Positions 3,763 through 21,996 of a stretch of DNA of 64,000 nt are shown piece after piece. The DNA lies in NCBI GenBank assembly GCA_964486065.1, contig CAZAKN010000001.1:80657-144656 (forward strand), read 5' to 3'. The position numbers and the translations under genes were made by a program. The notes below the pieces were generated by a model that had not been told where the DNA came from, made no database searches, and saw only the letters and a list, made by a program, of their open reading frames with translations. The first letter of the stretch is position 1, and each line of letters opens with the position of its first letter. The DNA is from an uncultured Gammaproteobacteria bacterium. GTDB taxonomy: Bacteria > Patescibacteriota > Patescibacteriia > UBA11705 > JABHMO01.

Positions 3763-4632
3763 TTATTTTTGGCAAATCGGGCAATATGTGGTTCCGCGTC
3801 CACCCAATTTAATCTTTTTAATTCGCGCTTGTCTGCATTTTTTGCATATTTCACCGCCTCTACCGTAAACCATTAAATATTTTTGATATCCTCCTTTCCG
3901 CCCTTCGCTGTTAACATAATTACTGAATGAAGTTCCCTTGGCTTTAATCGCTTTAAATAATACTTCTCGTACCCGCACGAACAAAGCTTTCTTCTGCTCA
4001 AGAGTTAATTTTGAAGCGACTTTATCCGGTCTGACTCCCGCCTTGAAACAAGCTTCGTCAACATAAATATTACCCAGACCGGCGATCTTTCCTTGATCCA
4101 AAAGCAATTGCTTAATCTTAATTTTGGGACGATTCTTGAAAAGTTGTTTGAAATATTCAAAATTCCAATCATCATCTGTTGGCTCATGACCGAACTTGCT
4201 CAATTCTTTTTCCAACCGCTTGCCGTCAACCAGTTTAAAATATCCGAATTTACGCACATCATTGAAATACAAAGCCGTTCCGTCACTGAATTCCAATTCC
4301 ACTCTGGTAAACTTATTCGGCACTTTTTCCACGCCTTCAATCGGATGACCGCCCACAACATATTTGCCTCGTTTCGGTTCGTAAACCAATTGTCCCGTCA
4401 TTTTTAAATGAATCAATAAGTATGAATCCTCACCTAATTTAAAATATAAAAGTTTTCCTCTACGGGAAACTTTTTTGATTATTTTACCTATTATTTTTTT
4501 AATAAACACTCCAACCTTCGGAGAAATTTTCTTGGCAAAAGAATCTTCAATCAAAACATTGGCGATTTTCTTATTGACAATCTTTTCTTCCAATTCTTTT
4601 TTAATTGTTTCCACTTCGGGTAATTCAGGCAT
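3763..4632 (-). CDS. mutM: Formamidopyrimidine-DNA glycosylase (Fpg/MutM)
   Basis: Start set at canonical MPELPEVE (catalytic Pro2) rather than upstream in-frame Met at 4707; C-terminal zinc finger (CxxC...CPICQ). Confidence 0.85.
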   Translation of the reverse strand: MPELPEVETIKKELEEKIVNKKIANVLIEDSFAKKISPKVGVFIKKIIGKIIKKVSRRGKLLYFKLGEDSYLLIHLKMTGQLVYEPKRGKYVVGGHPIEGVEKVPNKFTRVELEFSDGTALYFNDVRKFGYFKLVDGKRLEKELSKFGHEPTDDDWNFEYFKQLFKNRPKIKIKQLLLDQGKIAGLGNIYVDEACFKAGVRPDKVASKLTLEQKKALFVRVREVLFKAIKAKGTSFSNYVNSEGRKGGYQKYLMVYGRGGEICKKCRQARIKKIKLGGRGTTYCPICQK

Positions 4633-6317: not shown

Positions 6318-6366
6318 ATTTATTATTTATTTATTATTACGAATCATTATTTACGGATCAAGGAAA

Positions 6367-7923
6367 TTATTTTATAAGCGAACCTGAAATACCTTTGGGA
6401 ATTTTTTTGATATTAAACATTTGATAAATTGTCGGAGCAATATTGGTTAAATCCCCTTTTTTAAATAATTTGACTCCCTTTTTGTCATCACTTACCAAGA
6501 TCAAAGGAACGGGATTGGTCGTATGCCAAGTCCAAACTTCATCGGTTTTCAAGTCAAGCATTTTTTCCGCGTTACCATGATCAGCCGTGACGATCAGTTC
6601 ACCTTTATTTTTCAAAACAGCTTTACTTACCTCGCCCAAACATTTATCAGTATGCTCAATCGCTTTAATCGTGGCGGGCAAATTCCCCGTATGCCCCACC
6701 ATGTCGGGATTGGCGAAATTAATGGTAATGAAATCATATTTTTTTTGTTCAATATATTTCACGACCTGTTTAGCTATTTTATAAACACTCATTTCAGGTT
6801 TCAAATCATAACTTTTAACTTTCGGCGATGGAATCATTTGCCACTTTTCATGATCGCGTGTCTCCTTGTAACCACCATTGAAAAAATATGTGACATGCGC
6901 GTATTTTTCCGTTTCCGCTATATATAATGAATTAACATTTTCCAAAATTTTTGGCACTGATTGTTCCACCTGCGCTCCGGGGAAAGCTGCTTGCATGCCG
7001 TCAAGATCCGGTCCAAAGTCGGTTAAGGCGGTAAAAGTTAGATTTTTTATAACTTTGTTTCTTTTAAAAGAATTCTTATTTCTGCGATTGAAATCTTTTT
7101 GCGCAAAGGTTTTGGCTATTTGTCTCGCCCTATCTGATCTTAAGTTGAAAAATATGACCGAATCATTGTCATTAATTCTGCTTTTGGCGACATGCTTCCC
7201 ATCGGAGCAAATCGTGGCAGGTTCAATAAACTCATCGGTTATGCCTTTGTTGTATGAATGCAAAACCGCTTGTTTGAGATTTTTAAAATTACGACACTTG
7301 CCGGCGGTCAGGCAATCATAGGCTTTTTGCGTGCGTTGCCAATTTTTAACACGATCCATGGCGTAAAACCTTCCCATCACAGTTACGATTTTGGCTTTTC
7401 CTTTAACCTTTTTTTCCACTTCATCAAGCACTTCAATTGAAGCATATTGCGGAGAGTCACGACCATCGGTGATAAAATGCAGAAAAATATTTTTAACTTT
7501 ATATTTGGCCGCCATGTTCACCAAGGCATACATATGCTGTTTATCCGAATGAGGACTGCCGTTCTTGCTAAGCAATCCGAAAATATGTAAATTAGCAGCG
7601 TTTTGCTCGGCATGCTTGATAGAATCAATTAAAATATTATTTTTTTCAAAACGACCGTTTCTGATAGATTCGGAAATAATCACCGAATCTTGTTTAACCG
7701 GAAAACCGGCGCCGATATTCATATGTCCGGCTTCGGAATTTCCAACTTGATTTTTCGGCAATCCCACTTGCGAACCATGCGCCACCAACTTGGTATGCGA
7801 ATACTTCTCCCACAATTTTTCATAATTAGGCTTAACCGCTTGTTCAATAGCATTTCCTTTCGTTTTGGGAGCCAATCCCCAACCATCAAGAATCAGCAAT
7901 ACGATTGTTTTATTTGTTTTCAT
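6367..7923 (-). CDS. gpmI: 2,3-bisphosphoglycerate-independent phosphoglycerate mutase paralog (copy 2)
   Basis: 518 aa; same signature blocks (LLILDGWG, ANPDMVGHTG, TADHGNAE) as neighbouring copy but clearly diverged sequence. Confidence 0.8.
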   Translation of the reverse strand: MKTNKTIVLLILDGWGLAPKTKGNAIEQAVKPNYEKLWEKYSHTKLVAHGSQVGLPKNQVGNSEAGHMNIGAGFPVKQDSVIISESIRNGRFEKNNILIDSIKHAEQNAANLHIFGLLSKNGSPHSDKQHMYALVNMAAKYKVKNIFLHFITDGRDSPQYASIEVLDEVEKKVKGKAKIVTVMGRFYAMDRVKNWQRTQKAYDCLTAGKCRNFKNLKQAVLHSYNKGITDEFIEPATICSDGKHVAKSRINDNDSVIFFNLRSDRARQIAKTFAQKDFNRRNKNSFKRNKVIKNLTFTALTDFGPDLDGMQAAFPGAQVEQSVPKILENVNSLYIAETEKYAHVTYFFNGGYKETRDHEKWQMIPSPKVKSYDLKPEMSVYKIAKQVVKYIEQKKYDFITINFANPDMVGHTGNLPATIKAIEHTDKCLGEVSKAVLKNKGELIVTADHGNAEKMLDLKTDEVWTWHTTNPVPLILVSDDKKGVKLFKKGDLTNIAPTIYQMFNIKKIPKGISGSLIK

Positions 7924-9176
7924 ATTTCATTTTCAATTTCCATCAATCTGTTATACTTGGCGACTCTTTCCGAACGGGACAATGATCCCGTTTTTATAAA
8001 ATCCGCGTTTACGGCCACTGCCAAATCCGCGATAAAAGTATCGCAAGTTTCTCCCGAACGATGCGAAACACTTATTTTATATTTATTCTCTTTCGCCAAA
8101 TAAATCGTGTTGATTGTTTCCGTCAAAGTTCCGATTTGGTTAAGCTTAATCAAAATCGCATTGGCTGCTCCCATTTCAATTCCTTGTTCCAATCTTTCGT
8201 AATTCGTAACAAACAAATCATCTCCGACCAAAGTTACTTGCTTTCCGAGAAAACCGTTACATTTCATCCAATTGATCCAATCGTCTTCCGCCAAAGGATC
8301 TTCAATGGAGATAATCGGATATTTTTTCAGCCATTTTTCCAATGTTTTTATGACTTGATTGGCGGATACTTTTTTCTTGCCACTTTTATCATTCAGAGCG
8401 TATTGCCCTGTTTTTGAATCAAAGTATTCACTAAGTGCCAAATCGGAAGCGATAAACGCGTCCTTGCCGGGTTTATAACCCGCCTTTTTTATGGCGGATA
8501 AAATAAAATCCAAAGCTTGCTCATTACTTTTTAAATTCGGAGCAAATCCACCTTCATCACCTACTAAGGTTTGATAACCGCTTTTTTTAAGTAATTGCTT
8601 CAGAGCCATAAAAACCTCCGCACCTATACGCACTCTTTTTTCCATTTTCGTGGCTTGCGGAACAACCATAAATTCTTGTACGGTCAATGAGTTGTCGGCA
8701 TGTTTACCACCGTTTAAAATATTCATGGTCGGCACGGGCATTCGCCATTTCTTCTCCGGCAAACGATACGCTTGGCGAATGTATTGATATAAAGGTTTAT
8801 TTTTACTCAATGACGCGCATCTGGCGCAAGCTAATGAAACCGCCAGAATCGCGTTAGCGCCCAGCTTGCTTTTATTTTTCGTGCCATCCAGCTCAATCAT
8901 CACCTGATCTATTTGTCTTTGCTTATCAATTTCCATGCCTTGCAATTTTTTTCCGATAATATTATTCACATTTCGCACGGCTTTCAAAACGCCTTTGCCT
9001 TGATATCTTTTTTTGTCGCCATCGCGCAATTCATGAGCTTCATGTTTTCCGGTAGAAGCTCCGGACGGTACCATGGCCTTGGCGATAATTCCATTTTGCA
9101 ATTCCACGCGAGCTTCAACCGTAGGATTACCTCTGGAATCCAGCACTTCGCGTGCGCTTATTTTTTTTATTTTCAT
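7920..9176 (-). CDS. eno: Enolase
   Basis: 418 aa; N-terminal EVLDSRGNPTVEA and C-terminal SHRSGET enolase signatures. Confidence 0.9.
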   Translation of the reverse strand: MKIKKISAREVLDSRGNPTVEARVELQNGIIAKAMVPSGASTGKHEAHELRDGDKKRYQGKGVLKAVRNVNNIIGKKLQGMEIDKQRQIDQVMIELDGTKNKSKLGANAILAVSLACARCASLSKNKPLYQYIRQAYRLPEKKWRMPVPTMNILNGGKHADNSLTVQEFMVVPQATKMEKRVRIGAEVFMALKQLLKKSGYQTLVGDEGGFAPNLKSNEQALDFILSAIKKAGYKPGKDAFIASDLALSEYFDSKTGQYALNDKSGKKKVSANQVIKTLEKWLKKYPIISIEDPLAEDDWINWMKCNGFLGKQVTLVGDDLFVTNYERLEQGIEMGAANAILIKLNQIGTLTETINTIYLAKENKYKISVSHRSGETCDTFIADLAVAVNADFIKTGSLSRSERVAKYNRLMEIENEI

Positions 9177-9195
9177 AATTTAAAATTTTCTTTAA

Positions 9196-9978
9196 TTATA
9201 AGATTTCATAAGTCAATGAAACATTAACCGTGATTTCATTTTCACCGGTTTGAATTCGTGGCGCTTCTTCTCCACCGCCCAGTCCATACGCTTCATCAGC
9301 CATGGCTTTGTATTGAGGCATATCAATATACCCGTTTTGCGATTCGGAAAATGAAATTATTTTGCCGAGTTTCACATCCAATTGTTTGGCCAATTCATCA
9401 GCTTTTTCTTTCGCGTTGGCGATAGCTTCGGCGCGTGCTTCTTGTTTCAATTCTTCTTCATCATCAATTTCAAATCGCAAACTTCCGATATCATTGGCTC
9501 CGTTATCCGCGGCTAACTTTAAAATGGTATTGATTTTTTCATGATCGCGAATAGTAACTTCCACGGCTTGATTCACATAATAACCAACAACTTTTCTATC
9601 CCCATCATTCCAATCATATTTCGGATTTACATTGTAATTGGTTGTCCGCATATCTTTTTCCTCAATCTCCTGTTCTTCCAACATGACGATGATTTGATTC
9701 ATTTTTTCAGTATTTTCTTCTTGAGCTTTTTCAACTGTTGCTTTTTCCGTACGCACGCCAAGGCTAACTTTGGCCACATCGGGCTTCATGGTCGCAATAC
9801 CTTCACCTTTAATGGAAATTGAATAAGGTACTTCAGCGGATTTGCCGATATAATCGTGTTCCGTCCACGCGTTTCTCGCTTCCAAAGCCAAAAACAAAGC
9901 CAAAAACAACAGCGATAAAGATAAAAATACCGCCACCGCTTTGTGATGAAATACATTGTATTCACATTTGTTTTCCAT
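9196..9978 (-). CDS. SIMPL-domain (DUF541) secreted protein
   Basis: 260 aa with N-terminal signal/TM helix and DUF541-like periplasmic domain; assignment by family resemblance only. Confidence 0.55.
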   Translation of the reverse strand: MENKCEYNVFHHKAVAVFLSLSLLFLALFLALEARNAWTEHDYIGKSAEVPYSISIKGEGIATMKPDVAKVSLGVRTEKATVEKAQEENTEKMNQIIVMLEEQEIEEKDMRTTNYNVNPKYDWNDGDRKVVGYYVNQAVEVTIRDHEKINTILKLAADNGANDIGSLRFEIDDEEELKQEARAEAIANAKEKADELAKQLDVKLGKIISFSESQNGYIDMPQYKAMADEAYGLGGGEEAPRIQTGENEITVNVSLTYEIL

Positions 9979-9993
9979 AAATTTTTAAGTTAT

Positions 9994-11172
9994 TTATTTT
10001 TTTAAAATTTCAATTCCGGGCATGGCGCGTCCCTCTAGAAAATACAACATCGCTCCACCGCCGGTTGAAACGAAATTAAATTTTCGCAAAGCTCCGGCTT
10101 TTCGTAAAGTAAAAACAGTTTCTCCGCCACCAGCGATTTTTTTTAAAGTTTTTTGAGTTGCCATGGCCTTGGCGATTTGTAAACTTCCTTTCCTGAATCG
10201 TGGCAAGTCTACCAACCCAAGCGGTCCCGACCATATGGCGAATTTTGTTTTTTTTAGAACTTCAATATATTGTCGCGTCGCGCGCGGACCGATATCAAGA
10301 ATTTGTTCTCCTTCGTGGCAAATTAGCTTATCAGACAAATCGGGCAAAAAAACTCGTCTAGTTTTCCTTTTTGTTTTAACATCCGCCACGATAACTTCAT
10401 TCGGTAAAATAATTTTTTTTGTTTTTAATAATTTCGTGGCTTCAATTATCATTTTCTCATCCCCGCAAATTGAATCTCCTATATCATATCCTCGCGCTTT
10501 CAAAAATGTATTGGCTGCGCCACCTCCGGTTAAAATATAGTCGTAACGACCGAGCAGTTTTTTAATAACAGAAAATTTGGATTCTATCTTAGCGCCACCG
10601 ATAATAGCCACTCCGGGACGCGGTGGCTTCAATGCCATACCCAGATTATCTATCTCATTTTGAAAATTCAAGCCCAAGTATGACGGCAGAATACGCGCCA
10701 CACCAACATTGGAAGCGTGCTCTCTGTGCGAGCCGGCGAAAGCTTCATTCACATAAACATCCGCCAAGGAAGCCAAAAACTCCACGAACTTTTTACTATT
10801 CTCCTTCTCCCCTTTATTAAAACGAATATTCTCCAAAAAAGTAATCGGCTTTTTGTTTTCGCAAATTTCACGCGACAATCGGTTGTTTATTTTATGGTCA
10901 ATGAATTTTACTTTATCACCGGATAAAAGCCGATTTAAATAACGCACCAAAGGTTTAACCGATAAATCCTTCTTATATCGTCCAGACGGTCGCCCCAAAT
11001 GCGTAATCATGATCAAAGTATTATTTTGTCGCAAAAGTAATCTAATCGTTGGCAAGCTTTGTCTTATTTTAAAATCATCAAGGATTTTTCTTCCCGACAT
11101 TGGAACATTGTAATCAACTCTCAGCAATACTCGTTTGTTTTTAATGCTTGCCAATTCACTTTTAATACTCAA
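9994..11172 (-). CDS. pgk: Phosphoglycerate kinase
   Basis: 392 aa; N-terminal RVDYNVP and C-terminal STGGGA PGK motifs; sits in gpmI-eno-pgk glycolytic cluster. Confidence 0.85.
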   Translation of the reverse strand: MSIKSELASIKNKRVLLRVDYNVPMSGRKILDDFKIRQSLPTIRLLLRQNNTLIMITHLGRPSGRYKKDLSVKPLVRYLNRLLSGDKVKFIDHKINNRLSREICENKKPITFLENIRFNKGEKENSKKFVEFLASLADVYVNEAFAGSHREHASNVGVARILPSYLGLNFQNEIDNLGMALKPPRPGVAIIGGAKIESKFSVIKKLLGRYDYILTGGGAANTFLKARGYDIGDSICGDEKMIIEATKLLKTKKIILPNEVIVADVKTKRKTRRVFLPDLSDKLICHEGEQILDIGPRATRQYIEVLKKTKFAIWSGPLGLVDLPRFRKGSLQIAKAMATQKTLKKIAGGGETVFTLRKAGALRKFNFVSTGGGAMLYFLEGRAMPGIEILKK

Positions 11173-11262
11173 AACCTTTAATATTTATGTAAGAATTATA
11201 GCAAATTTTTTGTTAAATTTAAAAAAATTTGTGCATAAACAATGCAAATTATCAACTTTCCG

Positions 11263-12480
11263 TCAATATTTAAATCCGCCCACTTTTTTGCGTAATCTTG
11301 AGTATTTTGCCAATGCACCGGGGCGCACGGTCAATTCACCGTAACGATCATTGATTTTATCCAAATGCTTGATTAACTCATCATATTTTTGCTCGGACTT
11401 AAATAAACAAGCTTGAGAAGTCGCTTGTTGCAAATTACCCGCGTAAACTCCGATCTGTCTAACTGAATTCCGAAATTTTAAACCGGACAAAATTGATTTA
11501 GCGCTTTTAAATATTTTCAATTCATTATTCATCGGGAATTTAAAAGTGATTCTTTCGGAAAATCCGCTAAAATCAGCGTAACGAAAATGAAACACAAAAG
11601 TTCGCGCCGCTAATTTATCACCACGCAAAGTCCTGCAAACATTTATGCATAAATGTTGCAAAACCGGCAGAACATCTTGTTTGTTCCAAGTATTTTTATC
11701 CAAAGTATAAGCGCGACTGACGGATTTACGGATTTCACGATTGGAATCCGGTTTGACCGGAGCATGATCAATCCCGCGACTCATATTGTAAAGATTTTGT
11801 CCTTGTACTTTTCCAAACTCGGCAATCAAAGCGAGCAAAGGATAATTTCGCAATTTTCGCACCGAAAATATGCCCATGTTTTCCAATCGCTTGGCAATCC
11901 GTGTCCCTATACCGCAAAAATCAGTTAAACGGGCATGAAAAAGATAATCATCGCGATTTTTGCGATTGATAATGGTTATACCGTCAGGTTTATCAATTTC
12001 CGAAGCTAATTTCGCCAAAAATTTATTATATGATATTCCAATTGAGCAAGTAATGGTTTCACCAAGCCGAATTTTTAAATCCTTTTTAATTTGCGAACAA
12101 ATATTCTTGGCTTCCGAATAATCGGAAGCGTAACCGGTTAAATCAAGAAATACTTCATCAATACTGAAAATTTCCACAACTTCGGAATATGATTTAAAAA
12201 CTTGAATAAATTCATTGGTTATAAATTGATATTTGTCACCATCACATTCCACGAAAATTAAATCCGAACAAAATTTCTTCGCTTCAAATTGACTCATGGC
12301 GGTTTTAACTCCTTTTGCTTTGGCCTCTTTTGAAGCGGCGGCCACGACCGCGCGACTCCCCTCCTTGCCTCCGACCGCAACGGGCTTACCAATTAAAAAA
12401 GGATTAGCTTGTTGCTCCACAGACGCGAAATATGAATCCATGTCTATATGCAAGATAATCCTTTTGCTGTTATTCACCAT
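11263..12480 (-). CDS. dinB: DNA polymerase IV (Y-family, DinB)
   Basis: 405 aa; N-terminal ILHIDMDSYFASVEQ catalytic motif of Y-family polymerases; downstream of lexA. Confidence 0.85.
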   Translation of the reverse strand: MVNNSKRIILHIDMDSYFASVEQQANPFLIGKPVAVGGKEGSRAVVAAASKEAKAKGVKTAMSQFEAKKFCSDLIFVECDGDKYQFITNEFIQVFKSYSEVVEIFSIDEVFLDLTGYASDYSEAKNICSQIKKDLKIRLGETITCSIGISYNKFLAKLASEIDKPDGITIINRKNRDDYLFHARLTDFCGIGTRIAKRLENMGIFSVRKLRNYPLLALIAEFGKVQGQNLYNMSRGIDHAPVKPDSNREIRKSVSRAYTLDKNTWNKQDVLPVLQHLCINVCRTLRGDKLAARTFVFHFRYADFSGFSERITFKFPMNNELKIFKSAKSILSGLKFRNSVRQIGVYAGNLQQATSQACLFKSEQKYDELIKHLDKINDRYGELTVRPGALAKYSRLRKKVGGFKY

Positions 12481-12718
12481 AATAAACTTCTTCTAAAATC
12501 CATTGATTATTCCCCGTATTATAGCGTAATTTGAAGTAATTTTCCGCGCTTTGCACGCTGAAAAAATATTGTTTATCTCTTCCCATGTAAAGTGAATGGA
12601 TCATGTTAATCCTTTGTATTGAATACTTATGATTATGCCATACGAAAAATAGAGGTTTAACTCTATTTTTCATAAATAACACCATAACATCCACTTTTTC
12701 ATTAACTTGCTCAAACAT
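12470..12718 (-). CDS. Small hypothetical protein translationally coupled to dinB
   Basis: 82-aa ORF overlapping the dinB start by 11 nt; no recognisable motif; could be a polymerase accessory factor (inference). Confidence 0.35.
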   Translation of the reverse strand: MFEQVNEKVDVMVLFMKNRVKPLFFVWHNHKYSIQRINMIHSLYMGRDKQYFFSVQSAENYFKLRYNTGNNQWILEEVYYGE

Positions 12719-12938
12719 ATTAATTAAGTTTAATCATGCCGAGAAAAAACCTTTACTTGGCTAGCTCCATTAAATATTTAAGGATTTTGAGCTTGATTTG
12801 TTCGTTTGTCATATGTGATTTGCTTTTTAACTTTTTGTTTAAACATTATTGGTTAAATCTTCCCAAAAATATTTTACGCTTCTATAAGCGGCTTTCATTT
12901 TTCTTTTGTTTAAATTAGGCATATTTTTTAAGTGTGGC

Positions 12939-12983
12939 GGGGAGAAATACATGGATTACAACCCCCATCATGTATTTCTCCCC
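12939..12983. repeat. Perfect 15-bp inverted repeat (GGGGAGAAATACATG / CATGTATTTCTCCCC) with 15-nt loop; possible terminator/regulatory hairpin downstream of lexA
   Basis: Read directly from sequence; T-rich run follows on + strand. Confidence 0.5.
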
Positions 12984-13008
12984 AATTTGTTTGTTAATTA
13001 TCTTTTAT

Positions 13009-13614
13009 TTATGAAAATTTTCTTATTACTCCTTTTACCACGCCTTGGATTTGAACATCCTGCGCGTAAATCGGTTCCATGGATGAATTAGCGGGCTGTA
13101 ATCTAATTCTGTTTTTTTCGCGATAAAATCGTTTTAAAGTCGCGTTTTCTCCGTCAATCAAAGCCACAACTATCTCACCATCTCTTGCCGTATTCTTTTT
13201 TTCAACGATTACATAATCACCGCTTAAAATTCCTTCTTCAATCATGGAATCTCCTTTAACTTTCAGCACAAACGAATTTTCATCTTGAACAAATGTTTCC
13301 GGAACGGACATGGTTTCTTTTTCTTCCACCGCTTCAATCGGTGCTCCCGCGGTGATCAATCCGGCCAAAGGCAATTCAAATCCGCGAACTCGTGCCATAA
13401 ATTGATCTTCCAATCTGTTTCGCGTAATAATCTCTCCCTCTTCATCCATGTAGCCCTTTTGCCTCAGTGCTTGGAGATGCTGATGGACCGTTGCGGGCGA
13501 GGACAATCCCACTCCTTCAGCAATCTCCCGGCAACTGGGCGAATAATCATTTTCTCTTATAAAATTAGTTATGAATTTCAATACTTCACTTTGTCTTCTG
13601 GTTAATGTTTGCAT
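13009..13614 (-). CDS. lexA: LexA repressor
   Basis: 201 aa; N-terminal wHTH, C-terminal S24 peptidase domain with Ala-Gly cleavage site (LAGLITAGAPIEA) and Ser/Lys dyad region (VKGDSMIE...K). Confidence 0.85.
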   Translation of the reverse strand: MQTLTRRQSEVLKFITNFIRENDYSPSCREIAEGVGLSSPATVHQHLQALRQKGYMDEEGEIITRNRLEDQFMARVRGFELPLAGLITAGAPIEAVEEKETMSVPETFVQDENSFVLKVKGDSMIEEGILSGDYVIVEKKNTARDGEIVVALIDGENATLKRFYREKNRIRLQPANSSMEPIYAQDVQIQGVVKGVIRKFS

Positions 13615-13664
13615 ATTTTTTTATTAAACAAATTATGATCAGAATTTCACCGTTTTTCACCACT

Positions 13665-13710
13665 GTTCGGTTTCTGTTCGTAATTTAACTATACCGAACA
13701 AAAAACGAAC
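13665..13710. promoter_or_regulatory. Two candidate LexA operators of GTTC-N7-GTTC type in inverted orientation (GTTCggtttctGTTC at 13665-13679; GAACaaaaaacGAAC at 13696-13710)
   Basis: Seen in sequence 50-95 nt upstream of lexA start, in the lexA/13841 divergent intergenic region; GTTC-N7-GTTC direct repeat is the established alphaproteobacterial-type LexA box. Confidence 0.45.
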
Positions 13711-13840
13711 AGTCAAGCCCCACGCATGTGGATAAATTCTCTGATTAACCGATTTGTCTAAATTTATTTTAAAATTGTGTATAATTTATCGCCTCAATCC
13801 TCTTGATATGGTATAATTTAACAGATATTATTTATTTTAT

Positions 13841-14890
13841 ATGATTGAGGATAATCAATTTAAACCCAAAAAATCCGAACAGGAAGAACAGCCAAAACAA
13901 ATGCCCGAACTCAAAGTGGCGAGGCCGGCAATCGTTCAACCGGAAACGGAACAATTACCTTATGATTCTCCCTCTCCCGACGATAAAGCGGAAGTGTTGG
14001 AAGATTTTGAGAAAATGTATGAAAATACATTAAAACTTTATCTCGGTTTGACGAAAAACGCCAAAGAGAACATGACTTACGCGCATCGTAAATTCAATGA
14101 ATCAGCGGACAAGAAAAACCGAGCCGAGAAAAAAAAGTATTCTCAAGCTCATCTGCATGCTCATCGTGCCAATCATGCGACCGAAAAAGTTATCAGTAAT
14201 TATGAAAAAGTTCTGTATAGCAAACTTCGCGCTGATGATAAAATTTTCTATTTGGTACAAATTGAAGAATTAAAAAACGAATATCGTTTCAACATGAATG
14301 AATATTTTAATATTTTGAAAACTACGGAAGATTACGAAAAAGACAAGGCGCAAGCTGAACTTCGAGAATTTGATCACCAAATCACTTATGAAGATTTGGA
14401 ACAATTATCCGTAGAACTTCATGATACGGTTTGGGACGCGGCCACTTTCACCAAATATAAATTTGAAAATAAAGAAAAAATGCACAAACTGATGGGCATT
14501 TTAAGCGCTTTAATCAATGAAACCGAAGAATCACATGACCAACTTCAAGATTCATTGGTGGATGCTCATGATATTTATCACGGCAAGGAACAAGTTCGTC
14601 GCAGTTTTAATAATCACATGAGAGCCCATATAAACTTAACGACCACCTCTTATCAAGAAGTAAAAAAAGCGGCCAAAGAGCTATCGGAATATTTCACTTT
14701 ACTCAACATGCCCTTAAATAATTTAACTTCTTGGCTCAATAGATTTCAATATGAGCTTTGGGAACAACCGGAAAAACAAAAGCAAATACAAAAAATTTAT
14801 CACGATAACATCGCCATGTTTAAACAACATCTTAAAAAAACGGAAAAAGCGATTCAAGAAATAAAAGCCATTATTTACACTCACGAATAA
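13841..14890 (+). CDS. Hypothetical Lys/Glu-rich coiled-coil protein, divergent from lexA
   Basis: 349-aa ORF, low complexity charged/helical; no motif recognised. Confidence 0.5.
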   Translation: MIEDNQFKPKKSEQEEQPKQMPELKVARPAIVQPETEQLPYDSPSPDDKAEVLEDFEKMYENTLKLYLGLTKNAKENMTYAHRKFNESADKKNRAEKKKYSQAHLHAHRANHATEKVISNYEKVLYSKLRADDKIFYLVQIEELKNEYRFNMNEYFNILKTTEDYEKDKAQAELREFDHQITYEDLEQLSVELHDTVWDAATFTKYKFENKEKMHKLMGILSALINETEESHDQLQDSLVDAHDIYHGKEQVRRSFNNHMRAHINLTTTSYQEVKKAAKELSEYFTLLNMPLNNLTSWLNRFQYELWEQPEKQKQIQKIYHDNIAMFKQHLKKTEKAIQEIKAIIYTHE

Positions 14891-15001
14891 AAGGGAAAAC
14901 GGCTCAGGCCACCGGGGCCGAGTTTACAAAAAGTTTAATTTCATCCAGTCTTTATAAAGAAATAATATTTCACATACAAACACTGAATACGCGAGGAAAT
15001 C

Positions 15002-15271
15002 ATGAAATCCAAGTCTGAACACTTTGTTGCCGGAGCGATTGTGGGAATCTTGTTGGGAGCGGTTGTCTTAGGTGATGTCGGAGCTGTAATCGGCGGAATT
15101 GTTTTTGGTTTAATTTCAATGTGGATAGAAACCGAAAAGCAAGAAGAATCCAAGCAAACCACATTGGAAAAACGCTATCACTACACTAATTCGCCTCCCC
15201 CAAAAGCAAAGAATAAAGACGAACATATTTGCGAAAAATGCGGAAACCGGCACTGTAAATGCAAAAAATAA
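15002..15271 (+). CDS. Small membrane protein with glycine-zipper TM segment and C-terminal Cys cluster
   Basis: 89 aa; AGAIVGILLGAVVLGDVGAVIGGIVFGLI (GxxxG repeats) then CEKCGNRHCKCKK; followed by strong terminator. Confidence 0.5.
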   Translation: MKSKSEHFVAGAIVGILLGAVVLGDVGAVIGGIVFGLISMWIETEKQEESKQTTLEKRYHYTNSPPPKAKNKDEHICEKCGNRHCKCKK

Positions 15272-15290
15272 GTACTTTTACTTATAATAT

Positions 15291-15316
15291 AAACGCCCGT
15301 TTTTACGGGCGTTTTT
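15291..15316 (+). terminator. Rho-independent terminator (aaaCGCCCGttttttaCGGGCGttttt)
   Basis: GC stem + U-tract read from sequence. Confidence 0.65.
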
Positions 15317-15329
15317 AAATTTTTCGGTT

Positions 15330-15653
15330 GTGGATTATAATATTGACTATGGCTTTTTTATCATATATACTGTTCGCCACAGGGAAAAACTTCAGCAAGG
15401 GAGCGGTAAAATGAGAATAATGGGAATTCTTGTTCAGGATGAGGAGCAAAAGGCTTTTTACGAAGAAATGTTTAAAGAAAAAGGACTTCTTGCGGCAAGC
15501 GTCAGGATCACCGACAAAGGAGATTCAAACAACTTGCCAACCCTACTGACCAGCACGGAATCCGTAATCGGGAAAGAAAGGATCAACCACATTCTCAACA
15601 CTTGGAACAGAAACACACGCACGGGTGAATTCAAAATTTACCCAGGAGCCTAA
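15330..15653 (+). CDS. Hypothetical protein
   Basis: 107-aa ORF ending immediately before a GGAGCCtaacGGCTCC-T8 terminator. Confidence 0.45.
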   Translation: MDYNIDYGFFIIYTVRHREKLQQGSGKMRIMGILVQDEEQKAFYEEMFKEKGLLAASVRITDKGDSNNLPTLLTSTESVIGKERINHILNTWNRNTRTGEFKIYPGA

Positions 15654-15668
15654 CGGCTCCTTTTTTAT
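15645..15668 (+). terminator. Rho-independent terminator (GGAGCC-taac-GGCTCC + T-tract)
   Basis: Seen in sequence. Confidence 0.65.
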
Positions 15669-15774
15669 TACAGCGATTAATTGTTCGCTGAACTCAGAAT
15701 ATACAACACAAATTATAAAATTGATAGATCTAAACGCTAGACTCTAATCTCCAAGCAAACCAAATTTTGGAATA

Positions 15775-15856
15775 CCGAAACAAACAATTTTCAACCTAAA
15801 CCCATTTTCCATCCTGACGAACCAACAAATCTTTGGCTTTATTTTTATCTTTCAAC
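15775..15856. repeat. 82-bp perfect direct repeat, copy A (duplicate of murF 3' end + 22 nt 3' flank)
   Basis: Identical to 18101-18182 by letter-for-letter comparison; contains last 19 codons of murF (LKDKNKAKDLLVRQDGKWV*) as an orphan fragment. Confidence 0.9.
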
Positions 15857-15943
15857 TTCTACTTGAACATTTTCCAAAATGGAACATGTTGTAAATAATT
15901 ATCCAGCTTATTCTCGTCTATAAATTCCATTTCGCAAAACTCT

Positions 15944-16333
15944 TTACTCTTTCTCAGACATGTTTTTAAACTGCTCATAACTACCAATTCCGGCAAAGTT
16001 TATTTCAAAATTAGCATTATCTATTTTATCAATTCTTACTGAGTCAATCCCCAAAATATGCAATCTTTCGTATGTCAAAAGCTCTCCCTCTTTTAACCTC
16101 AAAACATCTCTTAAAATCCATTGTCCAAGCTCTTGATTTGAATATGACATAAGTGCTTTCCCTCCATCTTGGCAGCTTTTAGCTTTCATTTTTTTGCCAT
16201 TTGGAAGTTTTAAATCAAATGACGTTTCCCTGTCAGGAAAAAAACTTGGGAAATTTCTGTGAATTTCCGCTGGAATTGGAATATATACCTCATTAGGGTG
16301 GCGCTCTCTACCACCAGCATTCCATTGATTCAA
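15944..16333 (-). CDS. Hypothetical protein, putative restriction endonuclease component (second cistron)
   Basis: 129-aa ORF whose ATG overlaps the stop of the upstream ORF (ATGA), immediately downstream of m5C-MTase; no motif recognised. Confidence 0.4.
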   Translation of the reverse strand: MNQWNAGGRERHPNEVYIPIPAEIHRNFPSFFPDRETSFDLKLPNGKKMKAKSCQDGGKALMSYSNQELGQWILRDVLRLKEGELLTYERLHILGIDSVRIDKIDNANFEINFAGIGSYEQFKNMSEKE

Positions 16334-17067
16334 ACCGCTTTTTTCAAAAACTGTTTGATTTCGGCCGTAAAGAGGAAGGTAAACTGTTTGCTTAATTTTT
16401 GCTTCTTTCTCAAATTGTAAGTCTGTTTTTTAAGTAATTTTCTTAATTCTAAAAGCGGGTCTTCCAAAATATCAACATTAAACTCATAAACAATCGGCTC
16501 CGTGATAAATCTTTTTGTGAGTGTGCTTTTGGAAACTAAAAAAGAGTAATCATGTTTACAGTCCTCAAAAGCAATAGAGCCTTTTCGTTCTTTAATGTTT
16601 TTGATATTGGCTATATCCACTTTATCCATTGGCTCCTCGAAAATCATAAATTTTCCTTTTTCTCTGATTACGCAATGGTAAATAGATTTTTTCAAAGCGT
16701 GTGCATTTTCCGTAAATTCAATCCTAGCGTTTCTCAACTCAGAAACTTTGATGATCAATTTTTCAGGAGATAGATTTTCATAAATTTTTCTATCATTGTT
16801 AAATTCAGCAACTTTCTGAAAAGTTCTATTATTGTTAGCCAAAAAGGTTTTTAGACCAATTCCCAAAACATCTTTTTTTGCATCTGCCGATACATCACTT
16901 CTTGATAAATCTTCCGCTTCAAAAGCACGACAAAAAATCTTTTCCGCAACTCGATAGTATAAATAAGGAATTTTTGATTCTGAAAAAAGATTAGAAAGAC
17001 AACCTGCAATTCTCAAAAAATGCTCGTATTCTTTTTGAAGATCAGATTTTTGAGTTTGGAAAAACAT
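16330..17067 (-). CDS. Putative type II restriction endonuclease (uncharacterised family)
   Basis: 245-aa ORF 5 nt downstream of the m5C-MTase gene, same strand; function by position only. Confidence 0.4.
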   Translation of the reverse strand: MFFQTQKSDLQKEYEHFLRIAGCLSNLFSESKIPYLYYRVAEKIFCRAFEAEDLSRSDVSADAKKDVLGIGLKTFLANNNRTFQKVAEFNNDRKIYENLSPEKLIIKVSELRNARIEFTENAHALKKSIYHCVIREKGKFMIFEEPMDKVDIANIKNIKERKGSIAFEDCKHDYSFLVSKSTLTKRFITEPIVYEFNVDILEDPLLELRKLLKKQTYNLRKKQKLSKQFTFLFTAEIKQFLKKAV

Positions 17068-17071
17068 ATTT

Positions 17072-18031
17072 TTAGTTAGTTAAAGCTTTTTTCATATTTG
17101 CAGCGATTCTTTGAATAACCGGAATTGAAACAGAATTACCAAATTGTTTGTACAGATGAGAATCTGCAATGTTAGGGAGTTTATAATTCTTTGGAAAACC
17201 TTGGAAATTACCACATTCTCTTGGCGTTAACTTTCTAATTCCTTTTCCGTTTAAAACCAAAGGAACATTATGACCACCCATTCCCATATTTGCCGTTAAA
17301 GTAGGACAAACCTTATTTTTATTCTCTCTAACATATTTTCTTCGCCATTGATAAACAGTGTCTCGTTTTTTGACTTCCTTTTGCAATTCTTGATAAAGCG
17401 GTTTGTCATTGTAATAATATTTATCATCAACTTCATTTTCTTCTAAGCAATCATGAATTGTTTTTGTTAATTTAATCTTTTCTGGAAAAGAAAATTTGTC
17501 ATGAGCTTTTTTGTCTGAAAATCCAACAATATATATTCTCTCTCTATTTTGTGGAAGATTCCCATATTCCATTGTATTTAAAACTTTTACTTTAACAAAA
17601 AAACCAAGTTCTTTTTCTAATTTTTCAATAATAATTTTCATTGTGTTTCCTTTGTCATGTGTTTTGAGGTTTTTTACATTTTCAAGAAGAAAAGCCTTTG
17701 GCTTTTTAGCTTTTAAAATTCGTACAATATCAAAAAACAAATTCCCTCTGTTTTTCTCATCATTAAACCCTTGTTTATATCCCGCAATAGAAAAAGGTTG
17801 ACATGGAAAACCACCACACAAAACATCAAAATCAGGAATTTTTGAAGTCGGTATTTTTTGAATATCGCCAAGTACCATTTGTTTTTCGGTTTCAAATATT
17901 TCAACAAAATTAAAATCAAATGTTGTTTTTGCATTTTCATCAAAATCATTGGAAAACACACATTGAAACCCGGCGTTTTCAAAACCAATTTTTATTCCAC
18001 CTATACCGGCAAATAGATCTATGAATTTCAT
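17072..18031 (-). CDS. DNA (cytosine-5)-methyltransferase
   Basis: 319 aa with canonical m5C-MTase motifs: I (DLFAGIGG), IV (GGFPCQPFS), VI (ENV), VIII (QNRER), X (QFGNSV). Confidence 0.9.
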   Translation of the reverse strand: MKFIDLFAGIGGIKIGFENAGFQCVFSNDFDENAKTTFDFNFVEIFETEKQMVLGDIQKIPTSKIPDFDVLCGGFPCQPFSIAGYKQGFNDEKNRGNLFFDIVRILKAKKPKAFLLENVKNLKTHDKGNTMKIIIEKLEKELGFFVKVKVLNTMEYGNLPQNRERIYIVGFSDKKAHDKFSFPEKIKLTKTIHDCLEENEVDDKYYYNDKPLYQELQKEVKKRDTVYQWRRKYVRENKNKVCPTLTANMGMGGHNVPLVLNGKGIRKLTPRECGNFQGFPKNYKLPNIADSHLYKQFGNSVSIPVIQRIAANMKKALTN

Positions 18032-18100
18032 ATTGTCACTATATTTTTGTTTTAAATAAAAAAGTTTATCTCTACATTATTTCACAAAGATACCACCTCG

Positions 18101-18182
18101 CCGAAACAAACAATTTTCAACCTAAACCCATTTTCCATCCTGACGAACCAACAAATCTTTGGCTTTATTTTTATCTTTCAAC
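18101..18182. repeat. 82-bp perfect direct repeat, copy B (authentic murF 3' end)
   Basis: Identical to 15775-15856; contiguous with murF ORF. Confidence 0.9.
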
Positions 18183-19399
18183 AAAGCTTTGGTAATTTTT
18201 TCAATACGCGCACCTTGCGAACCTTTTAGCAAAATCAAATCATTTTCCCGGACAATTTCTTCAATATTTTCCAGCGCTTTATTACTGTTTTCGTAAACAA
18301 ATAAACCCTTTAAGCCGTTTTCACGCGCTCCGCGCGCCAATTCGTCTCGGTATTGTCCCACGGCGATCAATAGTTGAAAACCGGCTTCCGCCACCGCTTT
18401 GCCCAGCTCGTAATGTTCTTGCTCGGCGGTTTCACCGAGTTCTAGCATATCACCTAGAACCGCCACTTTACGCGTAACCACCGAAGTTTCCAGTTTACCG
18501 ATGGCTCGCGTCGCGGCTTGAACGGCTTGCGGGGATGAATTATAAGTATCATCAATCAAAACCGAATCTTTAATACCGGGAATAATATTCATGCGCCCTT
18601 TCGGCGGTTGATAGTTTTTCAAGCCTTCGCCGACTTCCACCAAATTTATGCCGAAAGCAATGCCCGTCGCGGCCGCCGCCAAAGCAGAATATAATTGATG
18701 TTCACCGAAAACCCGCGGTAAAAACATGGGCACACTTTTGCCTTGATAAGCTATTTTAAAATTTACACCTTCAAGATTCAAACCTTTGCCCGAATAAGAG
18801 ATCTCTACTCCCCTGACATCTGCGCCATCCCCCAGACCGTAAGTAATAATTTGCGCTTTGGTTTTTTCCGCCATACTTCTGACCAATTCATCATCATAAT
18901 TCAAAACCGCGAAACCGTCCGCTGACAAATGTTCCACGATTTTTCTTTTTTCTTTCAAAACTCCGTTCAAATCACCGAAATATTCCAAATGTGCCGATCC
19001 GACTCTGGTGGCCACCCCCACATTGCATGGCGCCAACTCGGTCAAGTACGCGATATCACCGGGATGATCAGCACCCATTTCAAGCACCAAAACTTCAGGA
19101 TAATCAACCGTTTTGCGTAGCATTGAAGCGGCCTTGAGAAAAACTTTCAGCCAACCGAAAACTGAACGACCCGCGCTTTCCGCTCCGATAATGGTCAGAG
19201 GCACGCCCAATTCATTATTATAATTTCCTTGACTGCGACGCACGGAAAAACGGCTTTGCATGACCGCGTAAATCGCTTCACGCGTGGAAGTTTTACCGAT
19301 ACTGCCCGTGATACCAATAATCTTAGGCTGATATTTCTTCAATATGGCTCCGGCGTAGCCGGCTAAAATTTTCTGAATTATTTTTTGCATTTTGATCAA
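18122..19399 (-). CDS. murF: UDP-N-acetylmuramoyl-tripeptide--D-alanyl-D-alanine ligase MurF
   Basis: 425 aa; Mur ligase P-loop IIGITGSIGKTST and C-terminal domain. Confidence 0.85.
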   Translation of the reverse strand: MIKMQKIIQKILAGYAGAILKKYQPKIIGITGSIGKTSTREAIYAVMQSRFSVRRSQGNYNNELGVPLTIIGAESAGRSVFGWLKVFLKAASMLRKTVDYPEVLVLEMGADHPGDIAYLTELAPCNVGVATRVGSAHLEYFGDLNGVLKEKRKIVEHLSADGFAVLNYDDELVRSMAEKTKAQIITYGLGDGADVRGVEISYSGKGLNLEGVNFKIAYQGKSVPMFLPRVFGEHQLYSALAAAATGIAFGINLVEVGEGLKNYQPPKGRMNIIPGIKDSVLIDDTYNSSPQAVQAATRAIGKLETSVVTRKVAVLGDMLELGETAEQEHYELGKAVAEAGFQLLIAVGQYRDELARGARENGLKGLFVYENSNKALENIEEIVRENDLILLKGSQGARIEKITKALLKDKNKAKDLLVRQDGKWV

Positions 19400-19419
19400 A
19401 TTAACTTGATTTAATAAAA

Positions 19420-21405
19420 CTATTCTATCACTTCCGGCGGAACATTGTAATAGTCCAGCGCGAATTTGGCTATTTTACTAAAAAGTGGTGCGGCGGAATC
19501 GGATGAATAACGTACATTCTCCACGTGATCCAGCTTGGTGATTATAACGAAACGCGGTTTATCGGAAGGCACGAATCCGGCAAAAGTATGAATCGTTTTA
19601 TCACTATAACCGCCACTTTCCAGATCCGCCACTTGAGCGGTTCCCGTCTTCCCCGCCGGTAAATATCCTTCAACTCGCGCTTTGGTGGCATGTCCGTTTT
19701 TCACCACGGAAACCAACATCCCACTCAGCTGGCGAGCGGTTTCTTGACTGATGACTTGGCGATCCATGGTCGGTTTGGTTTCTCGTAATAAATTACCTTG
19801 CTTGTCAAAAACCTTTTCCACGATATAAGGATTGGGCAACATACCTTGGTTGGCAATCGCCGAATAAGCGGCCGCCAGCTGTAAAGGCGTTACCATAATC
19901 CCTTGTCCGAAAGAAGCCGTGGCCAAATAGATGTCATGACCTTTGAATAATGAAGCCACCGTGCCCTCGCCTTCCAAACACAAATCCACGCCCGTCGGCT
20001 TGCCGAAGCCAAAAGCCAAAACATAATTTAAAAATTCTTCAATGCCTATTTTACGCGCAGCGAACACCGTGCCCGTATTAAGTGATTCTTCCAAAACTTC
20101 GGTCATATTTTTCCAGCCATGCGCTTTTAAATCGGAATTTTTAATGGTATAAACATCAATCTTCACTTCTCCCGTGTCTTCATAGCCGGTGAACGGATCC
20201 ACCGCGCCTTGATCCATGGCCGCCGCGATGGTAAACGGTTTGAACACACTACCGGGTTCGTATGAATCCATAATCACGGCATTACGATAAACACTGATAT
20301 CTTCAACTTTGCTATAATTATTCGGATCAAATTCAGGCGCGTTACAAAGCGCCAAAATCTTACCCGTAGTCGGTTCCATGACAATCACGCTACCCCGCTC
20401 GGCTCCGTATTCTTCCAAAGATTTTTTCAACTCACCACAGGCGAAAAACTGCAAAGAACGATCTATGGTAAGCTCAAAGTCATGTCCGTTCTCCGCCTCG
20501 CGAAAATCCTTGCCCGCCACCGCTATCCAGCGACCACGCGTATCCTTTTCCGAACGCAAAAACCCCATCTCACCGGCCAAATCCTTGTTGTAACACCCTT
20601 CAAATCCGTAATAACCTTTCAACAAACTGTTTTCATCACTTTGTCCCACGAAACCGATTACCTGACTGCCCGTGTCTTTTTCCGGATAATATCGCGTAAT
20701 TTCCGTGGTAAACATGATTCCCGCGAATTCATAATTTTCAATCTGTTCCCGCTCTTCATCCGTAACCCGATGCTTCAAAGGCTCATAAGGATCATCTTCT
20801 TTGCGCAACTTTTTGTCCCACAAATCCAGCGTATCATTGGTTTTTATCATATCTTGGTGCTGCTGGCGCAGGGCTTCCAACTTGGGAATGTTTTCATCAA
20901 GAAACTTCTTGTTTTTTTCTTCATTTTCCGGATCAATACCGATAAATTGTTCAATATAATTAATATCTTTTTCCAAGCGTTCAATTTCCTCCACCACCGC
21001 GGTTAATTCATCAGCCGTGTATTTGCGCATATTAAAAACTTGTTTCAAAGCGTCCATGACTTTATCCGGTTCTTCCACATCTTCTGGCACGGCGAAAAGC
21101 ATATTCATATCTTTGTTTATGGCCACCGGCGATCTATCTTGATCTTTATCACTTAAATATATATTCCCGCGCACGGGATAAAGTTTGCGAAAAATCTCAT
21201 GCTGGCCTTCCGCCAAAGCCGTATAATAATCACCATCCACTATTTGCAGTTTAAACAGTCTCGCTGTGATAAAAAGCGCGAATATGGCAAAAAACAAAAA
21301 AAGCAAAAAAGAACGATATTTCATGCTTTCTCCCTGATTTTGTGAGTAATTCCCAGCGTAATATTTTACTTTTTGCTTTTTTTTAACAAATATGGACATA
21401 ACCAA
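19420..21405 (-). CDS. ftsI: Peptidoglycan D,D-transpeptidase (PBP2/FtsI class B PBP)
   Basis: 661 aa; N-terminal TM anchor, transpeptidase motifs SVFK (SxxK), SLN (SxN), KTGTA (KTG); unusual ~150-aa charged coiled-coil insertion in N-terminal module. Confidence 0.8.
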   Translation of the reverse strand: MVMSIFVKKKQKVKYYAGNYSQNQGESMKYRSFLLFLFFAIFALFITARLFKLQIVDGDYYTALAEGQHEIFRKLYPVRGNIYLSDKDQDRSPVAINKDMNMLFAVPEDVEEPDKVMDALKQVFNMRKYTADELTAVVEEIERLEKDINYIEQFIGIDPENEEKNKKFLDENIPKLEALRQQHQDMIKTNDTLDLWDKKLRKEDDPYEPLKHRVTDEEREQIENYEFAGIMFTTEITRYYPEKDTGSQVIGFVGQSDENSLLKGYYGFEGCYNKDLAGEMGFLRSEKDTRGRWIAVAGKDFREAENGHDFELTIDRSLQFFACGELKKSLEEYGAERGSVIVMEPTTGKILALCNAPEFDPNNYSKVEDISVYRNAVIMDSYEPGSVFKPFTIAAAMDQGAVDPFTGYEDTGEVKIDVYTIKNSDLKAHGWKNMTEVLEESLNTGTVFAARKIGIEEFLNYVLAFGFGKPTGVDLCLEGEGTVASLFKGHDIYLATASFGQGIMVTPLQLAAAYSAIANQGMLPNPYIVEKVFDKQGNLLRETKPTMDRQVISQETARQLSGMLVSVVKNGHATKARVEGYLPAGKTGTAQVADLESGGYSDKTIHTFAGFVPSDKPRFVIITKLDHVENVRYSSDSAAPLFSKIAKFALDYYNVPPEVIE

Positions 21406-21558
21406 AATTCGGATAATGAATAATCCATTATTATTCTTATTATAGCATAAATATCATTATTCATGTAACATCACGCGATTTTTTCGTTCTTTTTTGCATC
21501 CTGAATACTTTATGCTAAATTATAAGAAACGCACCTTTTCTCAACACAGGAGGTTTCC

Positions 21559-21996
21559 GTGGATATGCATAAAAAAGAAAGAAAAAAATGGAACAAAATT
21601 TTCGGCGTGGAACATAAGCATTACAAAACCATTGAGCAGGCTTCCAAAGCCACACAAAAACTGGGGATCCGCTCGGCCACTCAATATTCCCGTAAGCGTC
21701 ACCAAGATCCTCTCTTACCCAAATCACCGAATTACACTTACAAAGATGATTGGAAAGGCTGGCATGAATTTCTGGGAACCGCGCCACGCCTTCGGAAAAA
21801 CTACTACACCACTTGGCAAGAAGCTTCCGAAGTGGCGCGCGAAATGGGTATCACCAAGATCGGTGAGTATGTGAAAAATCGCGATAAAGACGAAAAACTT
21901 CCTTTCAATCCGGAAAGTTTTTATCAAGATTGGCCGGGTTGGTCAGCCTTTTTCCGACACGCTCAAGAGAAAACTCCTCCCCACGCGGAAACCTAA
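21559..21996 (+). CDS. Small basic protein with two tandem integrase-repeat-unit-like motifs
   Basis: 145 aa (GTG start after AGGAGG); internal duplication ...LLPKSPNYTYKDDWKGWHEFLG / ...LPFNPESFYQDWPGWSAFF resembling the repeat found N-terminal to some tyrosine integrases; GC content above local background. Confidence 0.5.
   Translation: MDMHKKERKKWNKIFGVEHKHYKTIEQASKATQKLGIRSATQYSRKRHQDPLLPKSPNYTYKDDWKGWHEFLGTAPRLRKNYYTTWQEASEVAREMGITKIGEYVKNRDKDEKLPFNPESFYQDWPGWSAFFRHAQEKTPPHAET

Follow-up and report, generated by a model that had tools for sequence, protein, structure and literature searches.

In the parts of Furuta et al. 2010 (PMC2853133) drawn on here, restriction-modification (RM) genes are described that are flanked by direct target repeats of 45 to ∼420 bp, some of which overlap the 3′ end of a gene, and that have a GC content below that of the genome. 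Here we describe an RM cassette downstream of murF in a 64,000-nt stretch of a Patescibacteria contig (CAZAKN010000001.1 of assembly GCA_964486065.1), referred to as the window, in which a 5-methylcytosine (m5C) DNA methyltransferase gene and an NgoFVII-family restriction endonuclease gene lie between two copies of an 82-bp direct repeat. The locus resembles the RM complexes with long target duplication, as described by Nobusato et al. 2000 and in the sections used of PMC2853133, in that only a restriction (R) and a modification (M) gene are enclosed by long repeats (82 bp here), the repeats copy the local target together with the 3′ end of a resident gene, the GC content is low and there is no transposase or integrase. 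It differs from them, within the same sections, in that the comparison which defines the class, with an empty-site genome, has no counterpart here; 36 nt of apparently native DNA separate repeat and foreign DNA on one side, and the R gene is frameshifted. The host belongs to the Patescibacteria (Candidate Phyla Radiation, CPR), which are not among the taxa named in those sections of PMC2853133. We regard the locus as a fresh example, from a CPR genome, of a known RM entry route, and as further evidence for an allelic slot of restriction genes.

The features of the locus are given below in the order in which they follow murF. L162 is a contig of the only close relative, L165 carries another copy of the cassette and L001 is a contig from a second assembler (Logan).
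18122..19390, minus strand: murF, UDP-MurNAc-pentapeptide ligase, intact (Pfam Mur_ligase_M and Mur_ligase_C)
18101..18182, minus strand: R1, the authentic murF 3′ end, contiguous with the murF body; 77/82 positions identical in L162
18065..18100, minus strand: 36-nt spacer (s36) from R1 to the cassette, collinear with L162 (∼78% identity)
18032..18064, minus strand: 5′ leader of the cassette with a promoter-like TATAGT/TATAAT box, common to cassette copies in other genomes
17072..18031, minus strand: m5C DNA methyltransferase, 319 aa, apparently intact (PF00145, E = 3e-92; TIGR00675)
15944..17067, minus strand: NgoFVII-family endonuclease gene, a single gene with a −1 frameshift; mechanically two open reading frames (ORFs), 16330..17067 and 15944..16333
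16426..16431, minus strand: frameshift site, A6 (T6 on the plus strand); the closest intact copy, in L165, has A7
15865..15943, minus strand: degenerate cassette-associated hairpin, directly after the endonuclease stop, found by folding
15857..15864, minus strand: 8-nt stretch AAGTAGAA (minus strand) from the hairpin to R2, read directly; the joint is spanned by L001
15775..15856, minus strand: R2, an orphan murF 3′ fragment, 82/82 against R1, in no ORF and untranslated

The identity of the two repeat copies was established both by a repeat search and by direct reading, and the pair is the sole exact repeat of at least 30 nt in the window (k = 30 scan). Each copy is made up of 1 nt and the final 19 murF codons with their stop, followed by 21 nt of 3′ flank. 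In the murF frame a TAG codon stands one codon upstream of R2, and the novel joint at 15856/15857 corresponds to a point 58 nt inside murF. The murF product is 422 aa long from the ATG or 425 aa from a TTG at 19399, and is identical to a database protein (P0121) encoded on a 232-kb NCBI contig. The initial annotation, made from the sequence alone, had recorded a perfect 82-bp direct repeat and an orphan murF 3′ fragment at its distal copy, and both descriptions hold; its account of the repeat content is right for the 19 codons and the stop, while the flank is 21 nt rather than 22, with 1 extra nt.

Between the repeats lie 2244 nt with 31.0% GC, compared to 37.6% window-wide, a value within the lowest 3.8% of equal-sized windows. 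The tetranucleotide distance of the cassette is the largest of all windows (0.353 versus 0.216 ± 0.041), and the cassette is the most compositionally deviant segment of the window. Thus the very AT-rich character ascribed to this ∼2.2-kb segment in the initial annotation was borne out, and the profile of k-mers and GC against the flanks that had been proposed as a check sets the insert apart in both respects. A second low-GC patch, at ∼50.3 kb, was considered as an island and rejected, as it lies inside the gene for an 1871-aa protein (46482–52097, minus strand); by eye, this ORF has an intein-like (Hint-type) insertion (CFLHGTKILMADGS ... VHN). Two 4-mer palindromes are strongly avoided window-wide, ACGT (6 observed, 100 expected; ratio 0.06) and TCGA (12 observed, 146 expected; ratio 0.08), and CGCG and GATC are not avoided; the avoidance suggests long exposure to restriction systems of those specificities. 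The cassette, 3.5% of the window length, holds 3 of the 18 ACGT and TCGA sites (p ∼ 0.02).

The methyltransferase matches PF00145 over positions 1–324 of 324, contains the motifs FPCQPFS and ENV, and has homologues of equal length (319 aa). Its nearest solved structure is M.HhaI (full-length alignment, E = 2e-63), and it is like the M.HhaI-type enzymes end to end but unlike them in the target-recognition region, which has diverged. A specificity for GCGC or GCSGC was considered and dropped, given this divergence and the fact that neither site is avoided in the window. The cassette is predicted to have its own promoter, from the TATAAT-like box in its leader; it is oriented in the same way as ftsI–murF and may in addition be transcribed by read-through.

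The initial annotation placed two endonuclease ORFs beside the methyltransferase. The methyltransferase stands, but the two ORFs are one frameshifted gene of 374 codons: inserting a single A in the A-run gives a 374-aa ORF, over which homologues of 369–380 aa, found in thousands, align end to end (best 90% identity), and several of these, 67–76% identical ones among them, are named ‘NgoFVII family restriction endonuclease’ by NCBI. Comparison with intact homologues by tblastn places the change of frame between LLKK and TDLQ. The DNA alignment of the site took in the copies on L165, L167, L171 and L169 as well as L001, which was built from the same reads as the window by a second assembler and also has A6. 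The endonuclease has therefore been inactivated by a 1-nt deletion, A7 to A6, its reading frame being no longer intact, and the present RM unit, with an intact methyltransferase beside a broken nuclease gene, is no longer complete. In principle the frame could be regained, but a run of 7 nt does not amount to a dedicated phase-variation tract. In the repaired protein, aa 226–350 match the B3-like DNA-binding domain RE_NgoFVII_C (PF20731, E = 2e-14), as in NgoFVII/NgoAVII-type endonucleases, but no partner ATPase gene is present. NgoAVII and CglI require a partner ATPase. For aa 1–225, where the domain in question is a PLD-type nuclease domain (PF09565, HxK motif), there was no match in Pfam, NCBIfam or PDB sequences; a homologue from a Finegoldia magna plasmid, 48% identical over its full length, bears the NCBI label ‘PLD domain-containing’.

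The methyltransferase-endonuclease (M-RE) pair recurs elsewhere at 78–85% nucleotide identity in unrelated genomic settings, of which there are at least five, mostly on Patescibacteria contigs: yebC and ruvC flank it in L169 and L170, and a DUF2157 gene and ABC-transporter genes do so in L171; in L165 it belongs to an array of accessory genes next to a tyrosine recombinase, in L167 it adjoins an MFS gene, and in L172 the methyltransferase is fused to RadC. Because copies at this identity occur in unrelated Patescibacteria contexts, the cassette appears to be horizontally mobile. Homology to the other loci starts at 18046–18062, which is 39–55 nt from R1 (by blastn at 18059–18062 for L169–L171 and at 18046 for L165 and L166), and stops at 15923–15978. 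Two simpler descriptions of the cassette were dropped: discrete ends, as homology breaks off at varying distances ahead of the methyltransferase start (−27 to −93 nt) without a sharp boundary, and direct repeats as a general trait, which only the window (82 bp) and L165 (965 bp) show, L169, L171 and L172 lacking them. Plasmid and phage collections yielded no vector of the cassette, only methyltransferase matches of up to 68% identity and one Finegoldia plasmid R-M pair. The latter (L174, 2437–4647, from F. magna plasmid pFMC, NC_010371.1) has the endonuclease family (48%) and an m5C methyltransferase in the order R then M; pFMC is a mobilisable Bacillota plasmid with a TnpB gene near the pair. 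As a separate observation, L168 (5163–7116) and L169 (1–2812) are two assemblies of one locus in which the M-RE pair lies between yebC and ruvC. In L168, a JGI contig, 925 nt of the methyltransferase gene are missing and yebC is fragmented, with the endonuclease gene intact and 100% identical; it is either a chimeric assembly or a strain with the endonuclease and without the methyltransferase.

The host is a Patescibacterium whose nearest named relatives (Candidatus Falkowbacteria and others) have only 50–58% MurF identity. One protein, P0001, comes much closer, at 94% identity; it is encoded on L162, a 4.3-kb contig of the only close relative (GCA_964434655.1, CAYSVU010000017.1). This contig aligns with window positions 21921..18065 at 93.65% identity, through ftsI, murF, R1 and a further 36 nt, at which point homology ends. 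Starting 79 nt after murF, at positions 3883–4332, L162 encodes a DpnI-family methyl-dependent endonuclease (PF06044, E = 2e-71), which occupies the position of the M-RE cassette; the contig ends inside dpnI. L162 thus has one repeat copy followed by the DpnI gene, with only the murF-side junction available for comparison. Relative to L162 the locus would be a substitution and not an insertion, and the comparison suggests that the site after murF is a variable slot for restriction genes.

This arrangement is like the pneumococcal DpnI/DpnII/DpnIII locus (PMC3573125, PMC4471560) and the ‘substitution’ class of Furuta et al., with unrelated restriction genes at one position, here after murF. The genomes concerned are ∼94% identical, one carrying a DpnI-family enzyme and the other the m5C methyltransferase and NgoFVII-family pair, and the shared flank reaches the cassette; it is unlike those cases in that only the murF-side junction is compared. 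We know of no flanking duplication at the pneumococcal dpn locus.

Two further conclusions are drawn from L162. Cassette homologues of other genomes do not cover 18065–18100, and the spacer appears to be native murF-downstream DNA of this lineage and not part of the cassette. Because the spacer appears to be native, repeat and foreign DNA do not meet on the murF side; at the distal end, repeat and cassette lie at most 8 nt apart. Secondly, L162 differs from the window repeat at 5 of the 82 positions, and R1 and R2 agree with each other at all five. At the level of divergence seen with L162, the chance of finding no difference between R1 and R2 is ∼0.005. R2 was therefore copied from this lineage's own murF after the split from L162, or else the copies have been homogenised, and the duplication appears to be young because R1 and R2 agree at every site where L162 differs.

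Direct observation covers the repeat and its junctions, the identities of the genes, the frameshift, the foreign composition, the copies elsewhere and the alternative occupant in the sister genome. The best-fitting origin, to which we give an even chance, is a circularised donor fragment that recombined once, inside the 82-nt homology, with the chromosome of a recipient lacking the cassette. The donor would have been a close relative already carrying the cassette after murF. A fragment with one end 58 nt inside murF and the other shortly beyond the hairpin, taking in the 36-nt spacer and the cassette, would have circularised, creating the joint now at 15856/15857. A single homologous crossover between this circle and the chromosome, in the shared 82 nt of a recipient whose murF was then followed directly by the ORFan flank described below, would give the order murF, R1, spacer, M, RE, hairpin, R2, flank, as observed, and would leave the essential murF gene intact. 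The change from A7 to A6 would have come afterwards, with loss of the endonuclease frame, leaving a solitary methyltransferase. Because the repeats are perfect, the event would be recent. The circle, its donor, the single crossover and a recipient with an empty site are inferred rather than observed. The crossover model covers both boundaries of the repeat: one would lie where homology between donor and recipient stops, 21 nt beyond the murF stop codon, and the other at an arbitrary break 58 nt inside murF; with the roles of donor and recipient swapped it predicts the wrong gene order. Single crossovers between the Escherichia coli chromosome and circular molecules produced flanking duplications of the homologous segment of 109–950 bp (PMC3240628). 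The locus is like the product of such Campbell-type crossovers, or of homology-facilitated illegitimate recombination, in having an insert between direct copies and an intact resident gene; the duplications in PMC3240628 were observed experimentally, whereas here the process is deduced from sequence alone.

In the crossover model the DNA beyond R2 would be the recipient's original murF-downstream DNA.
13841..15774, plus strand: left flank; its three ORFan genes, with products of 349, 89 and 107 aa, converge on murF, and a terminator scan places a terminator at 15644–15661
The three genes (13841–15653) lie between lexA and the orphan repeat. Against a database of 5.8 billion proteins they returned only the window's own 349-aa protein (100%), the 89- and 107-aa products matching nothing, and a query made of the three concatenated proteins likewise returned only the 349-aa protein. 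The N-terminus of the 89-aa product is of a glycine-zipper, holin-like type. A possible DpnI remnant in the window, a single tblastn hit (E = 0.18) in the 107-aa ORF without Pfam support, was judged to be due to chance.

Several points weigh against the crossover model. The spacer has only ∼78% identity to L162, and GTAGAGATAAA shows a weak likeness to GGGATATAAGG upstream of other cassettes, so the spacer could be associated with the slot or the cassette rather than being plain resident DNA. The left-flank ORFans may be accessory DNA, as may the whole lexA–murF interval, in which case they would not be what ancestrally lay next to murF. Neither an empty-site genome nor a donor-type genome (murF, spacer and M-RE without R2) was found, and both states are hypothetical. 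Finally, the assembly graph, considered below, fits an integrated cassette and an empty site with a 2326-bp circle or tandem copies alike.

In the classical alternative, which the initial annotation had named ‘insertion with long target duplication’, a free RM unit entered an empty site and the 82-bp target became duplicated, as could happen through staggered breaks followed by fill-in, everything between the repeats being incoming. Much of what Furuta et al. describe is found here: homologues of R and M and nothing else inside, an insert of 2244 nt (<20 kb) that is low in GC, a target-derived repeat of 82 bp (>30 bp) and, within the 64 kb examined, no mobility genes and only two copies of the repeat. 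Among the seven ORFs around the unit, Pfam identifies no transposase, integrase or prophage gene; the window has no tyrosine-recombinase match, and its only tRNA lies 11 kb from the unit. What is not found is a pair of repeats that directly bracket foreign DNA: the 36 nt at R1 align collinearly with chromosomal DNA downstream of murF in the relative, and homology to cassettes elsewhere begins only 39–55 nt from R1. Gene content, size and repeat length thus agree with the initial assignment, and the spacer contradicts direct bracketing. Of the recently mobile, self-contained RM unit proposed at the same time, the foreign, mobile and young character and the lack of a mobility gene are supported, and a complete RM system is not, given the frameshift.

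A search for an empty site in relatives or metagenomes, the check proposed in the initial annotation, found none in GTDB representatives, JGI metagenomes, the 5.8-billion-protein database or Logan look-ups, and the sole close relative has a DpnI gene there. MurF-based scans of the GTDB species representatives and JGI metagenomes gave nearest matches of 50–56% identity, too distant for comparison of the site, and of these 160 distant murF loci none carries the M or RE gene, a DpnI gene or a left-flank gene in the vicinity. Exact-protein look-ups with MurF (both starts) and P0121 gave no record, a blank that is expected because Logan contigs break inside the repeat. With the empty site not found in the collections searched and the mechanism of the class never demonstrated, we consider classical target duplication unlikely here.

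The Logan contigs (second assembler, k = 31) from the public runs SRR7048223 and SRR7048224 were compared with the window. They match it at 100% identity and end exactly 30 nt (k − 1) inside each repeat copy: L163 and L164 run through the left flank and end at 15804, L001 covers 15827–18130 and L173 begins at 18153. Breaks at 30 nt inside the repeats mean that the reads of both runs contain all four junctions and that the assembly graph truly branches at the 82-mer. The 82-mer forms a four-way node in the k = 31 graph of both runs, the same topology as an excised form together with an empty site. The contig could on this evidence misrepresent the population, which would hold a single-copy empty site and a 2326-bp circle or tandem, or two strains that were merged. 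However, the joint between the hairpin and murF (58 nt inside the gene) is in the reads (L001) and requires duplication or a circularisation that involves the chromosome, and the repeat and spacer are chromosomal in L162. The deposited 232-kb contig follows the integrated path, and no contig with a complete identical MurF, as an unbroken empty site would give, is on record. A misrepresented population seems to us quite improbable.

The hairpin after the endonuclease stop scored 13 bits (E = 0.04) against covariance model R1, at 15869–15948 on the minus strand. The family is ∼65 nt long, of the form AATAAGGAGTYTTGG..GGGCATTCACCCC..loop..GCCC..CCAARAC, with 16 base pairs and compensatory changes in 7. 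Its copies are:
L165, 10020–10085, 11617–11680 and 16516–16579: hairpin copies
L166, 3176–3223: hairpin copy
L167, 2087–2154 and 3587–3654: hairpin copies
L172, 3642–3706 and 4826–4890: hairpin copies
Strong copies stand directly 3′ of the stop codons of accessory ORFs in these four contigs, the preceding ORFs encoding the endonuclease, MFS, SLFN_AlbA_2, Lactamase_B_3 and other proteins. The family was not found in 80 Patescibacteria murF loci (∼1.3 Mb), the hairpins match no Rfam family, and the window holds no further copies. The hairpin may be an attC-like or other cassette-associated element.

The likeness to integron gene cassettes with attC sites lies in the presence of the RM pair elsewhere in accessory arrays whose units end in a covarying ∼65-nt hairpin, and in the position of the L165 array, which adjoins a XerA/integron-integrase-like recombinase. 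The hairpin is unlike attC in its outer boxes (GTYTTGG and CCAARAC versus the canonical RYYYAAC and GTTRRRY) and in its loop, which is conserved rather than variable; moreover, the window has no recombinase and a degenerate hairpin, and integron insertion gives no 82-bp duplication. It is conceivable that the position 57 nt past the murF stop is a dedicated slot in which restriction genes are swapped as hairpin-ended units by a non-canonical, integron-like CPR defence system, and in that case the hairpin family may be previously undescribed and the 82-bp duplication would be a by-product of cassette capture. The observations behind such a system are side observations at other loci, and we regard it as highly improbable. 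In L165 the accessory-gene array extends over 5121–16600, beside a 273-aa recombinase that scores above the cut-off for NF040815 and below that for TIGR02249. The same contig has a 965-bp direct repeat (6050–7013 and 11969–12924; 95% identical, with at least the first 300 nt perfect) that duplicates a 220-aa S-adenosylmethionine-dependent methyltransferase gene, and the RM system after each copy differs, M-RE following the first and Tsp45I with an N6/N4 methyltransferase the second.

Equally doubtful is an old resident cassette whose orphan repeat copy came from an independent template switch, gene conversion or repair patch of 82 nt: the slot by the spacer holds different restriction genes in the relative, so that the proximal junction could be of long standing, RM systems are tied to nearby rearrangements in the sections used of PMC2853133, and repair of a restriction-induced break is a possible trigger, but two novel joints without visible microhomology would be needed around the patch, its end at the exact limit of spacer-haplotype homology is left unexplained, and the cassette composition is still unameliorated.

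The findings do not overturn current understanding, and would not surprise a specialist in RM mobility; their main worth lies in the mechanistic interpretation that the sister genome permits, in a well-resolved example and in a pointer to cassette-associated hairpins. For long target duplication, whose origin had stayed unexplained, an ordinary mechanism can be proposed, and the alternative occupants of the site suggest a variable restriction locus, similar to the pneumococcal dpn locus, in an uncultured phylum. The 82-bp repeats would make RecA-dependent deletion, excision or amplification of the cassette possible. With the endonuclease inactive, loss of the cassette should no longer expose the cell to self-killing, and the RM unit would be on the usual path of decay towards a solitary methyltransferase or deletion. 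The locus would thus capture the life cycle of an RM system in a small CPR genome: entry beside an essential gene, an excisable duplication and early loss of the nuclease.

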